Shown here: positions 4,523 through 25,172 of the stretch, in pieces
Layout of the letters: the number at the start of each line of letters is the position of its first letter
Position numbering within the stretch: position 1 is the first letter of the stretch
Source: a virus
Taxonomy: Duplodnaviria; Heunggongvirae; Uroviricota; Caudoviricetes
Reading direction: 5' to 3' (one strand)
Length of the DNA: 25,181 bases
Virus record (IMG/VR): IMGVR_UViG_2681813233_000010
Made by a program: the position numbers and the translations under genes
The notes under the pieces: model-generated
The model's input: only the letters and a program-made list of their open reading frames with translations
Database searches by the model: none
Told to the model about the DNA's origin: nothing

Positions 4523-4793
4523 GATGTTACCGTAGTATGTGAGTATCCATCGAATAGACACCAAGCAAAAAAGCTCCCGAAGGAGCCTTCATTTTCACTT
4601 TTTCAAATCCAACGACAGACGGCTGGCATTTAAGTATTGTGAAATATTATCAAATGTAATCATCATTGATTTACAAAAGATACATTTTGCCCCGAAAGGA
4701 TTCATGTCAGAAACATCAAAAGATGATGTTCTATACTGGGAACCATGACAACACGGGCATCTAAAGTGAATATGGTTTGTAATATTGTCTACC

Positions 4794-5006
4794 TCAAAGC
4801 GCCACTACATGAACAGCGGCAGGACCTTTAGGTCCGTTCTCAATACCAAATTCAACTTCCTGATTCTCAGTTAATGTTTTGAAATCGTTGCTCTGAATTG
4901 CTGAGAAATGGACAAACACATCTTTGCTGCCATCTTTCGGCGTGATGAAACCAAAACCTTTTTCAGGGTTAAACCATTTCACTAAACCAGTCATTTTGTT
5001 AGACAT
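4794..5006 (-). CDS. cspI: Cold shock protein CspA-family paralogue, 70 aa
   Basis: [38 protein letters not shown]... carries the cold-shock RNP motifs; position next to the lysis genes matches Qin cspI. Confidence 0.85.
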
Positions 5007-5367
5007 AATTATTACCTTTTGAAGAAATTAGCCCTTGGGCAGAATGGTCCGAAAAAAATATCAGAGAGAAAAACCAACAAGGAAATCTCAAGAGGTACAA
5101 ATAATAAAATTATAACAATGACTGCTTCAGATAAATTTGTAACAAACCAGAACACCATTAACGCATGATTAACCACCCATAGCAAGGATTACTTTTGTAA
5201 AGAAAAACACAGCAATGAAAGAATAGCTTTATTTATTAATAAAACGTGTCATTCTGATTAAGACCTTTTATCTTACCCTTAAGATTTCAGGAATTTTGGC
5301 TCATGGAAGAGTCCTTTTTATTTAAATTTTACATTCCGCGATGTAAATGTTCCGATTTAATATTACC

Positions 5368-7474: not shown

Positions 7475-7616
7475 ATTTTGCCAAATATGCTAGCCATTGT
7501 TTCATGTATTGGACCTCCTTACTTTTTATTAAAGAGATCCAATATTCACTACTCTGTCCGTATCTCTACTCAGGCATCAGCCTTCTTCGTTATCGTATAC
7601 AGACGAGCGATGAATT

Positions 7617-7832
7617 TTAATCAGTAATGATGACATTTGCTGCTGCAGGACCTTTAGCACCACTCTCTATAGAGAAGGTAACCTTTTGACCTTCAAATAA
7701 GGTTCGATAATTATCATTCTGAATCGCAGAAAAATGCACAAACACATCTTTACTACCATCAACAGGAGAAATAAAGCCGAAACCTTTATCAGCGTTAAAC
7801 CATTTTACTAAACCAGTCATTTTATTTGACAT
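7617..7832 (-). CDS. cspB: Cold shock protein, 71 aa
   Basis: [71 protein letters not shown]; divergent from cspF as in Qin. Confidence 0.85.
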
Positions 7833-8132
7833 TCTACATTCCTTAACTTGAGCCTTTCGGCATAAATGGTTTGCATAACAGAAACGACTTCGTACTTAAT
7901 TGGAGAGACTCAAAGAAGGAATAAGTGAATAACACCTGAAATGAGAACTGCTTTAGTAAACTACTTCGTATATCGTCTGTTCTTCAAACCGACGCAATCA
8001 TTAACGCATAGTTGAACATATGAAGCAATGTTTATTTTAGACATCCAGCCATCTTCAACCCCATCAAAAAACTATAGCTTTCTTCAGGAACGTGTGTATA
8101 GTGCGCCAAGTTATCAGTATTAAGGAATTTTT

Positions 8133-14790: not shown

Positions 14791-15124
14791 GAAAAATCCC
14801 CCAGAGAATTGTCTGGGGACATTTTAGAATGGTTCAAAGGGGACATTACAGCTTGGTGTTAACAATAGCCTGCTTCTCCGTGCCTTTCGGCACGTAAGAG
14901 GCTAACCTACATGTGTCTAGCATGAAATTGGCCTCAGATTAATGTTAAGCGTCTTGCAGGACGCGTAATGTTAACTGGGGCTTTTCTCTATCTGCCGTTG
15001 GTGTCCATGCCCGAGGCAGATAGCCTCAAGCACCCGCAGTCATTCTACTTAACTAAGATTTCCCCGCAAACCGTTTTTGTCCAGCACAGTAAATATCCAA
15101 CTAAACCAATGGAGTTCGCTGTAT

Positions 15125-20481: not shown

Positions 20482-20539
20482 TTTCTGGTGACGTTTGGCG
20501 GTATCAGTTTTACTCCGTGACTGCTCTGCCGCCCTTTTT
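20482..20539 (+). ncRNA. dicF: DicF small regulatory RNA (Hfq-dependent sRNA that represses ftsZ) with intrinsic terminator
   Basis: TTTCTGGTGACGTTTGGCGGTATCAGTTTTACTCCGTGACTGCTCTGCCGCCCTTTTT matches the DicF sequence as recalled; GGCGG / CCGCC terminator stem then T-run. Confidence 0.85.
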
Positions 20540-21085: not shown

Positions 21086-21178
21086 AACAGTTCCGTAATA
21101 AATATCCGGTTTCATTCTTATATGCCAGCAATGGCAGGGATTTGTTCATCCTTAAATCTGTCATGAGGTTAAAACAAA

Positions 21179-21790
21179 ATGAGTAAAGTCTTTATTTGCG
21201 CCGCTATTCCTGACGAACTGGCAACAAGGGAAGAAGGCGCTGTGGCTGTAGCCACAGCCATTGAAGCTGGCGACGAACGCCGTGCTCGAGCAAAATTTCA
21301 CTGGCAGTTCCTGGAACATTATCCGGCTGCTCAGGACTGCGCTTATAAATTTATTGTCTGCGAGGATAAACCTGGCATACCCCGCCCTGCCCTCGATTCA
21401 TGGGATGCTGAATATATGCAGGAAAACCGCTGGGATGAGGAGTCTGCTTCTTTTGTCCCGGTTGAGACTGAATCCGATCCGATGAACGTCACTTTTGACA
21501 AGCTGGCCCCTGAAGTACAGAACGCTGTCATGGTTAAGTTCGACACATGTGAAAACATCACCGTTGATATGGTTATTAGCGCACAGGAATTGTTGCAGGA
21601 AGACATGGCAACATTCGACGGACATATCGTTGAAGCGTTGATGAAAATGCCAGAAGTTAACGCCATGTATCCGGAGCTTAAGTTGCACGCCATTGGGTGG
21701 GTTAAGCATAAATGTATTCCTGGTGCTAAATGGCCCGAAATTCAGGCAGAGATGCGCATCTGGAAAAAACGTCGCGAAGGTGAACGCTAG
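21179..21790 (+). CDS. ydfE: YdfE-like protein, 203 aa, ending at an amber codon that is followed in frame by the next ORF
   Basis: MSKVFICAAIPDELATREEGAVAVATAIEAGDERRARAKFHWQFLEHYP...; TAG at 21788-21790. Confidence 0.7.
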   Translation: MSKVFICAAIPDELATREEGAVAVATAIEAGDERRARAKFHWQFLEHYPAAQDCAYKFIVCEDKPGIPRPALDSWDAEYMQENRWDEESASFVPVETESDPMNVTFDKLAPEVQNAVMVKFDTCENITVDMVISAQELLQEDMATFDGHIVEALMKMPEVNAMYPELKLHAIGWVKHKCIPGAKWPEIQAEMRIWKKRREGER

Positions 21791-21964
21791 GAAACCGGAA
21801 AATACACGTCTGTTGTTGATCTCGCCCGCGCCAGAACCAATCAACAGTACACTGAAAATTCAACAGGAAAAATCAGCCCGGTCATTGCTGCCATTCATCG
21901 CGAATACAAGCAGACATGGAAAACACTGGATGACGAACTGGCCTACGCTCTCTGGCCTGGTGAT

Positions 21965-23650
21965 GTGGATGCCGGAAACATTGACGGCAGCATCCATCGC
22001 TGGGCAAAAAAAGAAGTTATCGACAACGACCGCGAAGACTGGAAGCGTATCTCGGCATCAATGCGCAAACAGCCTGATGCCCTTCGCTACGACCGCCAGA
22101 CTATTTTTGGCCTTGTCCGTGAGCGTCCGATCGACATTCACAAAGATCCCATAGCACTGAACAAATATATCTGCGAATACCTGACGACAAAGGGCGTGTT
22201 TGAGAATGAAGAAACAGACCTGGGCACTGTTGATGTTCTCCAGTCATCAGAAACACAAACTGATGCAGTGGAAACTGAGGTATCTGATATCCCAAAAAAT
22301 GAAACCGCGCCGGAAGCTGAACCATCTGTAGAGCGTGAGGGGCCGTTCTATTTCCTCTTCGCAGATAAGGACGGAGAAAAATACGGTCGCGCAAACAAAC
22401 TTTCTGGTCTGGATAAGGCACTGGCTGCTGGCGCCACTGAAATCACAAAAGAAGAATATTTTGCCCGAAAAAATGGCACATACACGGGCTTACCGCAAAA
22501 TGTAGATACCGCTGAAGATTCAGAACAACCAGAGCCGATAAAAGTTACCGCTGACGAAGTAAACAAAATTATGCAGGCAGCCAATATCAGCCAGCCTGAC
22601 GCCGATAAGTTGCTTGCTGCATCACGTGGTGAATTTGTTGAAGGGATTAGTGACCCGAATGATCCGAAATGGGTTAAGGGGATCCAGACCCGCGATTCTG
22701 TGAACCAGAACCAGCATGAATCGGAACGGAACTACCAAAAAGCGGAACAAAACAGCACAAATGCGTTACAAAACGAGCCAGAAACGAAACAGCCTGAACC
22801 AGTGGCGCAACTGGAAGTGGAAAAAGTCTGCACCGCCTGCGGTCAGACCGGCGGCGGCAACTGCCCTGATTGTGGCGCGGTGATGGGCGACGCAACATAC
22901 CAGGAAACATTCGATGAAGAGTATCAGGTTGAAGTTCAGGAAGATGATCTGGAGGAAATGGAAGGCGCTGAACATCCACACAAGGAGAACACTGGCGGCA
23001 ATCAGCATCACAATAGCGATAATGAAACTGGCGAGACGGCAGATCACTCAATTAAGGTGAACGGTCATCACGAAATCACATCCACCAGCAGGACGTGTGA
23101 CCATCTAATGATCGACCTTGAAACCATGGGAAAAAATCCTGATGCCCCGATCATCTCAATAGGTGCAATATTTTTCGATCCGCAAACCGGAGATATGGGA
23201 CCGGAATTTAGTAAGACTATCGATCTGGAAACTGCTGGCGGAGTCATTGATCGGGACACCATTAAATGGTGGCTTAAGCAATCACGCGAAGCGCAATCTG
23301 CCATTATGACCGATGAAATCCCGTTAGATGATGCACTGTTACAATTGCGGGAATTTATCGACGAAAACTCCGGTGAATTTTTTGTTCAGGTTTGGGGAAA
23401 TGGAGCCAACTTCGACAACACGATTTTGCGCCGTTCATACGAACGGCAGGGGATCCCCTGCCCGTGGCGTTACTACAACGATCGCGATGTACGCACAATC
23501 GTTGAGCTGGGGAAAGCCATAGACTTCGATGCCAGAACGGCTATTCCATTCGAAGGTGAGCGCCATAATGCACTTGATGACGCCCGTTACCAGGCAAAAT
23601 ACGTTTCAGTTATCTGGCAAAAACTGATCCCGAGTCAGGCTGATTCTTAA
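21965..23650 (+). CDS. Acidic protein with CxxC...CxxC zinc ribbon and C-terminal DEDDh 3'-5' exonuclease domain, 561 aa as given by the track; likely the C-terminal part of an amber-interrupted ydfE gene
   Basis: DEDDh motifs MIDLETMG (Exo I), VWGNGANFDNTIL (Exo II), HNALDDARYQAKY (Exo III); zinc ribbon CTACGQTGGGNCPDCG; same frame as ydfE with 58 start-free sense codons between. Confidence 0.7.
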   Translation: MDAGNIDGSIHRWAKKEVIDNDREDWKRISASMRKQPDALRYDRQTIFGLVRERPIDIHKDPIALNKYICEYLTTKGVFENEETDLGTVDVLQSSETQTDAVETEVSDIPKNETAPEAEPSVEREGPFYFLFADKDGEKYGRANKLSGLDKALAAGATEITKEEYFARKNGTYTGLPQNVDTAEDSEQPEPIKVTADEVNKIMQAANISQPDADKLLAASRGEFVEGISDPNDPKWVKGIQTRDSVNQNQHESERNYQKAEQNSTNALQNEPETKQPEPVAQLEVEKVCTACGQTGGGNCPDCGAVMGDATYQETFDEEYQVEVQEDDLEEMEGAEHPHKENTGGNQHHNSDNETGETADHSIKVNGHHEITSTSRTCDHLMIDLETMGKNPDAPIISIGAIFFDPQTGDMGPEFSKTIDLETAGGVIDRDTIKWWLKQSREAQSAIMTDEIPLDDALLQLREFIDENSGEFFVQVWGNGANFDNTILRRSYERQGIPCPWRYYNDRDVRTIVELGKAIDFDARTAIPFEGERHNALDDARYQAKYVSVIWQKLIPSQADS

Positions 23651-23722: not shown

Positions 23723-23974
23723 ATGAGCGAAGTAATCATGATTGTCTCTCCCGGCAAATGGGTATCCGAAGAGCAGTTAATTGCGCTGAAAGGAATAAAA
23801 AAAGGTACGTTAAAAAAGGCTCGGGAAAAATCGTTTATGGAAGGAAGGGAATATAAGCATGTCGCTCATGACGGTATGCCATGGGATAACAGCCCATGCT
23901 TTTACAACCTGGAAGAAATTGATCGCTGGATTGAGCGCCAGGCATCAGCGAGACCAAGACGTCATCTTACTTGA
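23723..23974 (+). CDS. xis: Excisionase-like protein (Xis), 83 aa
   Basis: MSEVIMIVSPGKWVSEEQLIALKGIKKGTLKKAREKSFMEGREYKHV...; immediately upstream of the integrase. Confidence 0.7.
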   Translation: MSEVIMIVSPGKWVSEEQLIALKGIKKGTLKKAREKSFMEGREYKHVAHDGMPWDNSPCFYNLEEIDRWIERQASARPRRHLT

Positions 23975-23993: not shown

Positions 23994-25172
23994 ATGAGAG
24001 AAGTTGAAATGAAATATCCGACAGGCGTGGAAAACCATGGAGGGAAATTACGTATCTGGTTTGTTTATAAAGGCGTAAGAGTCAGGGAAAATCTGGGGGT
24101 TCCTGACACAGCAAAAAACAGGCGCGTTGCAGGTGAACTACGCGCCTCTGTTTGTTACGCAATAAAAACTGGTGTTTTCGACTATGCAAAACAGTTTCCC
24201 TCCTCACGCAATCTGGAAAAATTTGGTGAGGCCCGACAAGATTTAACCATAAAAGAACTGGCTGAAAAATTTCTGGCACTGAAAGAAACTGAAGTCGCAA
24301 AAACATCACTCAACACATACCGTGCCGTCATCAAAAATATCCTGAGCATAATCGGTGAAAAAAATCTTGCCTCATCGATTAATAAAGAAAAATTACTGGA
24401 GGTTCGTAAAGAGCTACTGACTGGATACCAGATCCCCAAAAGTAACTATATTGTTACACAACCAGGGAGATCGGCTGTAACTGTAAATAATTACATGACA
24501 AATCTTAACGCCGTGTTCCAGTTTGGTGTTGATAACGGTTACTTGGCAGATAACCCGTTTAAGGGGATCTCGCCATTAAAGGAATCAAGAACCATTCCGG
24601 ATCCTCTTTCGCGGGAGGAATTCATCCGTCTTATCGATGCGTGCAGAAATCAGCAAGCCAAAAATTTATGGTGTGTTTCTGTTTATACTGGCGTTCGCCC
24701 TGGTGAGCTGTGTGCACTTGGATGGGAGGACATAGATCTGAAAAATGGAACAATGATGATCAGGAGAAATTTAGCAAAAGACCGTTTCACGGTACCAAAA
24801 ACACAGGCGGGAACCAATCGGGTCATTCATCTTATTAAGCCAGCAATCGACGCTCTCCGGAGTCAGATGACATTAACGAGACTGAGCAAAGAGCATATCA
24901 TTGATGTTCACCTCAGAGAGTATGGCAGAACAGAAAAACAAAAATGCACCTTTGTTTTTCAACCTGAAGTGTCAGCGAGAGTAAAAAATTATGGTGACCA
25001 TTTTACCGTTGACTCAATAAGGCAGATGTGGGACGCAGCGATAAAACGTGCCGGACTCCGCCATCGAAAATCATATCAGTCGAGACATACTTATGCCTGC
25101 TGGTCGCTGACAGCTGGTGCTAACCCGGCATTTATAGCAAACCAGATGGGCCATGCAGATGCGCCACCATAA
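23994..25172 (+). CDS. intQ: Phage tyrosine integrase, C-terminally truncated (defective IntQ-like), 392 aa
   Basis: N-terminal arm-binding-type domain and catalytic region ...SRHTYACWSLTAGANPAFIANQMGHADAPP then stop 6 residues after the LGH-type His, before the expected catalytic Tyr. Confidence 0.8.
   Translation: MREVEMKYPTGVENHGGKLRIWFVYKGVRVRENLGVPDTAKNRRVAGELRASVCYAIKTGVFDYAKQFPSSRNLEKFGEARQDLTIKELAEKFLALKETEVAKTSLNTYRAVIKNILSIIGEKNLASSINKEKLLEVRKELLTGYQIPKSNYIVTQPGRSAVTVNNYMTNLNAVFQFGVDNGYLADNPFKGISPLKESRTIPDPLSREEFIRLIDACRNQQAKNLWCVSVYTGVRPGELCALGWEDIDLKNGTMMIRRNLAKDRFTVPKTQAGTNRVIHLIKPAIDALRSQMTLTRLSKEHIIDVHLREYGRTEKQKCTFVFQPEVSARVKNYGDHFTVDSIRQMWDAAIKRAGLRHRKSYQSRHTYACWSLTAGANPAFIANQMGHADAPP

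Follow-up and report, generated by a model that had tools for sequence, protein, structure and literature searches.

The region between positions 21179 and 23650 very probably holds a single gene, that of the 823-aa exonuclease of Qin-type prophages, in which a recent A-to-T nonsense mutation has turned the Lys204 codon (AAG) into TAG in this lineage; to judge from the DNA, the allele would be nuclease-null through neutral decay. All coordinates refer to the window, the 25,181-nt stretch of caudoviricete DNA that we analyzed (IMG/VR record IMGVR_UViG_2681813233_000010). This copy is an ordinary pseudogene of recent origin, carried by a prophage that is itself decaying, and the exonuclease family to which it belongs is already known and annotated, though experimentally uncharacterized.

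Results

One amber codon in a single reading frame

Read in one frame on the + strand, 21179-23650 comprises 823 sense codons broken by exactly one internal stop. The 5' fragment of the gene (21179..21790) opens at ATG 21179 and runs for 203 codons, the YdfE N module, to the premature amber codon TAG at 21788..21790. There follow 58 in-frame codons (aa 205-262, 21791..21964) with no stop and no ATG, GTG or TTG, and then the 3' remainder (21965..23650), mechanically listed as a 561-aa ORF from GTG 21965. Translation and the ORF list bear out the split frame, the position of the TAG and the startless 58 codons described in an earlier note on this DNA. Direct comparison of the 2472 nt with the intact coding sequence of WP_001515375.1 reveals one differing base, an A-to-T transversion at 21788 that converts the ancestral AAG; with an annotated intact gene one base away over this length, a chance alignment of two ORFs was ruled out. 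The stretch of aa 205-262 is ordinary internal coding sequence, through which intact homologues read without a break. Since those homologues are single ORFs of 811-831 aa with Lys at codon 204, the proposal of one large early-left gene carrying a nonsense mutation holds. The related statement that ydfE ends at the TAG does not describe its usual extent, as the annotation of the K-12 pseudogene covers 921 nt, with Lys at codon 204.

The initiation signals point the same way. A Shine-Dalgarno-like GAGG (21165..21168, + strand) lies 10 nt 5' of the true ATG at 21179 (TGTCATGAGGTTAAAACAAA). Candidate restarts downstream of the TAG are GTG 21965, preceded by GGTGAT, and ATG 22061 (M295), at which the shorter annotated family phrog_20376 begins; no comparable Shine-Dalgarno sequence was found at the internal candidate starts, and no promoter-like site on the + strand between the TAG and the downstream ORF. 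The window also contains no tRNA or suppressor tRNA gene. Homologues that end at the TAG position and provide a separate start and ribosome-binding site for a downstream gene were sought, and none turned up.

These observations bear on whether the split could be functional, either through read-through or suppression of the amber codon or through the action of two separate proteins, the N module and a C-terminal nuclease made by re-initiation. Of the stop codons in E. coli, UAG is the leakiest, both Pfam YdfE domains fall within the 203-aa product (precomputed matches to PF27430 YdfE_N and PF27432 YdfE_C), and the shorter annotated phrog_20376 starts at M295. Programmed read-through would call for a conserved stop, however, and this one is not conserved: all representatives, like the complete genomes, have Lys at codon 204. 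The 58 codons without a start, the missing signals for the downstream part, the lack of a tRNA gene in the window and the rarity of the allele, which is confined to one lineage, also speak against a functional split, and we regard it as very improbable.

The TAG allele belongs to a small lineage

Codon 204 of aligned intact copies is AAG where TAG stands here, and this is the sole mismatch. We searched 5426 complete E. coli genomes with a 101-base query centered on codon 204. Matches were obtained in 3883 of them, 590 records having a best match one base off the query, and TAG in this context occurred in none of the 5426. An exact scan for the 39-mer with TAG likewise returned nothing from GTDB representative genomes, IMG/VR or JGI metagenomes; its AAG version, scanned as a control, was present at no fewer than 120 IMG/VR loci (at least that number).

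This absence, and the single base that separates the allele from a very common intact one, would be compatible with a sequencing or assembly error in a gene that is really intact, an alternative that the earlier note had raised. A look-up of the exact products, however, recovered the TAG allele from one lineage, in about seven assemblies that are drafts or derive from SRA. The two products, of 203 and 561 aa, lie side by side in the NCBI draft GCA_002519745.1, which is identical to the window over 6612 of 6612 nt and probably represents the source isolate or its sister, and the independently assembled Logan assembly of SRR5336215 carries the TAG allele with one other difference from the window in 6.6 kb. 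About five further similar places have both products in the same gene neighborhood, with the same truncated 387-aa integrase. Because the TAG recurs in about seven independent assemblies that share this integrase, it appears to be a real, inherited mutation of a small lineage and not an assembly artifact, and an error is extremely unlikely.

Many other contigs that yielded a 203-aa product end at codon 203, and we considered whether they mark a hot spot at the amber site. This was rejected: the look-up can recover a product only if it is exactly 203 aa long, and breaks at codon 203 are thereby selected by construction.

The intact gene is the norm

Full-length copies occur in about 65% of complete E. 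coli genomes (3489 of 5426 with a 2601-base query, 3537 of 5426 with the gene alone), often several per genome, and these genomes hold some 10,600 copies in all. The best megablast matches to the region have one mismatch, and the matching records annotate one 2472-nt coding sequence as "exonuclease" or "3'-5' exonuclease" (WP_001515375.1, 823 aa). A protein search gave 7999 matches, of which the best 120 clusters are all 811-831 aa long save one of 739 aa; the largest cluster holds 23,183 sequences, and K204 is invariant across 27 cluster representatives. Intact copies, 88-94% identical and in the same operon position, are also found in the sequenced phages Tritos, HannyBb, PhiR42_1, mEp460_ev081 and Evi. 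The alignment to prophage homologues that the earlier note had recommended thus recovers intact single-ORF versions, and as the majority form.

Among 59 intact alleles, dN/dS is about 0.24 overall, 0.14 in the N module and 0.16 in the DEDDh domain, and 67 of 71 end-to-end IMG/VR copies (94%) are intact. Judged by these alignments, the intact single-ORF form is the norm and is under purifying selection.

Architecture of the encoded protein

The full-length protein has three parts: the YdfE N module, a RecE-like center with a zinc ribbon and an acidic linker, and a DEDDh 3'-5' exonuclease. It is colinear with phrog_2082 over its full length (aa 1-822 against profile positions 1-822 of 823, 1822 bits), and phrog_5943 covers aa 1-257. 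An exhaustive search with the N module returned only 83 representative clusters, most of them the N-terminal part of larger proteins (500-980 aa); at the other end these have a DEDDh domain, a RecE-type PDDEXK nuclease (DUF3799) or no recognizable nuclease.

The RecE-like central region (21962..23053, + strand) aligns aa 262-625 with RecE 278-591 (BLASTP E 1e-59). Within it lies a zinc-ribbon-like CxxC-N7-CxxC motif (aa 551-565, 22829..22873, + strand; CTACGQTGGGNCPDC), followed by the acidic linker and also present in RecE; its four Cys residues are invariant in 27 representatives. The ribbon had been described as CxxC-N10-CxxC, a spacing that these coordinates correct to N7.

The DEDDh 3'-5' exonuclease domain (aa 642-813, 23102..23617, + strand) is of the Rv2179c-like or T4 DexA type. 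It matches PF16473 completely, over profile positions 2-177 of 177 (E 2.3e-67; 226.5 bits against a gathering threshold of 27), which is the outcome of the HMM comparison of the C-terminus with DEDDh families that had been suggested. The three motifs are present where they had been placed, namely DLETMG at 23114-23131 (D646, E648), NGANFD at 23399-23416 (D746) and HNALDD at 23564-23581 (H796, D801), and the domain bounds are now set at 23102-23617. The catalytic residues of Exo I, II and III are all present, and most are invariant in homologues. PF16473 bears the Pfam name "3'-5' exoribonuclease Rv2179c-like domain", and the only relative by sequence with a solved structure is PDB 8kel, cited by a structural study of T4 DexA. 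The combination of domains, which the earlier note did not assign to a characterized protein, can thus be placed as the annotated prophage family phrog_2082, a RecE-like scaffold joined to a DexA-type DEDDh domain.

Structure prediction by AlphaFold2 gave poor models for the 203-aa N module (mean pLDDT 50) and for a full-length homologue (pLDDT 37, with only aa 385-437 near 80), both because the alignments, with members 88-99% identical, are too shallow. PADLOC returned no defense-system match, and a literature search on ydfE, or on "Rv2179c-like" together with prophage, found nothing on function.

Prophage context and a truncated integrase

The exonuclease is the last large gene of an early-left operon ordered dicA, ydfABC, dicF, dicB, ydfD, exo, xis, int. 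It is followed there by an excisionase gene (23723..23974, + strand), assigned from the annotation of homologous loci, and by a gene for a truncated integrase of 387 aa (24009..25172, + strand). The latter departs from the intact 426-aa integrase at 25165, where its sequence changes from ...MGHADA to PP and a stop, and it is without the C-terminal segment bearing the YGKW tyrosine. This truncation is a second lesion of the same prophage. With its integrase truncated, the prophage would therefore already be locked in, a state that fits relaxed selection on its early-left genes. On the contigs that carry the TAG, the same 387-aa integrase is followed by a ynfA-like gene.

Other lesions and the question of selection

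The gene has been hit in several other ways. The IS2 disruption of K-12 ydfE, which the earlier note had mentioned, is real: gene nt 1-767 are kept, with Lys204, and a partial IS2 follows. GCA_009900505.1 has an opal codon (TGG247 to TGA), and IS1 ends abut positions equivalent to about 21897 and 21936. An IS3-family insertion of 1263 nt is accompanied by a CTG duplication at 21938-21940. A deletion joins truncated ydfU to gene nt 766, keeping nt 766-2472, and other partial copies retain nt 489-2472 only or nt 1-495 only. Frameshifts elsewhere lead to stops at codons 102, 166, 325 and 335. Two variants, P0121 and P0169, represent an in-frame deletion by which the Exo I motif is lost and a fusion of exo with int. 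The idea that P0121 (527 aa) is a mosaic joined at codon 204 was dropped, since that codon is Lys in P0121 and the internal in-frame deletion lies elsewhere.

The events just past the N module comprise the amber codon at 204, the opal codon at 247, the two IS1 ends, the IS3-family insertion, the endpoint of a 9-kb deletion and the point where the K-12 copy meets its partial IS2. Four of the junctions are packed into 10 bp (21936-21946), exactly at the boundary between the N module and the RecE-like region.

So many independent lesions (the IS2 remnant, IS1, the IS3-family element, opal, frameshifts, deletions and the fusion), several with junctions no more than 10 bp apart at the N-module boundary, could suggest that the nonsense mutation was selected, the nuclease being costly or toxic. 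Several of these lesions came from the look-up with the 561-aa product, however, which was able to return only lesions between 21791 and 21964. Nonsense and frameshift lesions amount to 0.023 per kb of the exonuclease gene among the 71 end-to-end IMG/VR copies, and to 0.1-0.37 per kb in the small neighbors ydfA, ydfC, dicB, ydfD and xis, which serve as a crude control. Counter-selection is unsupported because lesions per kb are no higher in the gene than in its neighbors. The low dN/dS, the high share of intact end-to-end copies, the full-length copies in most complete genomes and the intact gene in viable phages such as mEp460 count against it as well, and we consider it unlikely. The earlier suggestion that the locus is hit independently in different ways thus stands, and its hint of counter-selection does not. 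From the sequence comparisons we conclude that decay is probably sporadic and neutral among very many copies.

The cluster of events just past the N module prompts a narrower proposal, in which alleles that lose the nuclease but keep the YdfE N module arise repeatedly and are selected instead of neutral. We think this quite unlikely; if true, it would suggest that the N module has a function on its own, that the DEDDh nuclease carries a cost, or both.

Discussion

Our preferred reading is neutral decay of one gene. Translation of the mutant allele would stop after the 203-aa N module, leaving the remaining 620 codons, which specify the RecE-like scaffold, the ribbon and the DEDDh nuclease, untranslated apart from trace read-through or weak re-initiation. 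Because these nuclease-side codons would go untranslated, the allele is predicted to be a nuclease-null pseudogene, and it would have arisen by neutral decay of a locked-in cryptic prophage. The catalytic residues downstream of the stop are intact, presumably only because the mutation is recent.

The intact protein, by its family membership, is expected to be a T4 DexA-type exonuclease that degrades DNA 3'-5' and depends on Mg2+; it would be attached to a RecE-like scaffold and presumably made upon prophage derepression. It might act on intermediates of recombination or replication, or else on foreign DNA.

In annotation, the ORFs of 203 and 561 aa are best treated as one pseudogene of the prophage exonuclease. 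The module make-up of this very common E. coli prophage protein also leads to hypotheses about its role, namely that it degrades DNA 3'-5' and may also exclude phages whose DNA is modified.

Comparison with known systems

The closest known system is the exonuclease of Qin and CP-933-type lambdoid prophages (WP_001515375.1, phrog_2082), which has the same DNA bar one base and occupies the same operon slot, from ydfD to xis-int. The copy in the window differs in that its frame is interrupted, and because of the TAG at codon 204 it is best classed as a pseudogene allele of this Qin-type 823-aa family. The K-12 remnant, pseudogene ydfE (b1577), is interrupted at gene nt 767 by part of an IS2 and not by an amber codon.

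T4 DexA also matches PF16473, and is 28% identical across the catalytic core, where Exo I and Exo II line up. The position of the tetramer-forming DexA D90 is Asp718 here and Ala in EcD ("HREX"); the 5hmC-recognition residues, a Trp and an Asp, do not come within the alignment, which ends before DexA D169. DexA (227 aa) and EcD are stand-alone proteins, whereas the domain studied here forms the C-terminal end of a protein of 823 aa. T4 DexA and its E. coli homologue EcD degrade DNA 3'-5', and EcD protects against T4 (PMC12153337). A 2025 survey of lambdoid phages (PMC12315714) described nucleases of the DnaQ type close to int, as well as "RecE-2" proteins that lack a nuclease; these lambdoid early-left genes, whose proteins are uncharacterized in that paper, can be likened to the N-module relatives found here.

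RecE (exonuclease VIII of the Rac prophage, b1350) has a homologous center, ribbon and acidic linker. The two proteins differ little over about 140 aa, with near identity running from DKLLAASRGEF across the ribbon and linker; the alignment ends at RecE 591, before the nuclease domain. RecE is likewise encoded by a large early-left gene next to xis-int, with its ribbon region just before the nuclease domain. The first 260 or so aa of the present protein are unrelated to RecE, no recT follows the gene, and the C-terminal nuclease of RecE is a 5'-3' PD-(D/E)XK enzyme in contrast to the 3'-5' DEDDh domain here. Consistently, the NCBIfam RecE model NF007259 matches aa 246-625 only (positions 271-602 of 877), scoring 280 bits against an equivalog cut-off of 1269, with the C-terminal PD-(D/E)XK domain unmatched, which places the protein outside RecE proper. 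The comparison leads us to view the protein as a mosaic of phage modules, built on a RecE-like plan and fitted with a nuclease of opposite polarity.

Results

Four RNA elements were recovered by Rfam match in the window, namely the DicF sRNA (20483-20534, plus strand), the sok antitoxin RNA of the hokD locus (14864-15035, minus strand), and two cspA-type thermoregulator leaders (7601-7993 and 4767-5151, both on the minus strand), which together are the usual RNA set for a Qin-type prophage. At the far end, the integrase (24009-25172) is truncated, with a junction at 25165; it is 387 aa long and ends ...MGHADA|PP*, whereas its intact relatives have 426 aa, and it has lost the C-terminal part that contains the YGKW tyrosine. 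In the sister contig L131 the integrase is followed by a UPF0060 (ynfA-like) gene, which suggests that attR and rspAB have been deleted and that the prophage is locked in.

Two more natural lesions affect the exonuclease gene itself. In protein P0121 an in-frame deletion joins aa 367 to aa 665, with loss of the Exo I motif, and in P0169 the reading frame runs, across a deletion, from exonuclease aa ~335 into the middle of the integrase. Four distinct rearrangement junctions from unrelated genomes (L082, L129, L132 and L003) also fall inside 10 bp of this gene, at window 21936-21946, or codons 253-256; two came from a look-up biased to that stretch, and the other two did not. They comprise an IS1 end (~21936), an IS3-family insertion at 21938-21940 that duplicated CTG, a fusion of ydfU to nt 766 of the gene by deletion (21943/4), and the K-12 junction with a partial IS2 (21945/6). 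The cluster lies where the YdfE N module meets the RecE-like region.

Among relatives of the YdfE N module (P0125-P0178), the module stands at the N-terminus of proteins of 500-980 aa. At the C-terminus these proteins have PF16473 (DEDDh) or PF12684 (RecE-type PDDEXK), or lack any recognisable nuclease domain. In one of them, P0135, the YdfE module occurs together with an N-terminal Exonuc_VIII piece and a DEDDh domain. In an otherwise poor full-length AlphaFold2 model, the sole confident stretch (pLDDT ~80) corresponds to aa 385-437 of the joined protein (window ~22331-22489), predicted as a small domain of two hairpins and a helix (GPFYFLFADKDGEKYGRANKLSGL...).

Discussion

When window positions 21962-23053 were compared with K-12 recE (L134, 4790-7387, minus strand), near-identity extended over the zinc ribbon and acidic linker together with ~140 aa upstream of them; in RecE this segment is the part that precedes the nuclease domain. 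It follows that the module has been exchanged between Rac-type and Qin-type genes, whose nucleases, judged by family, are of opposite polarity.
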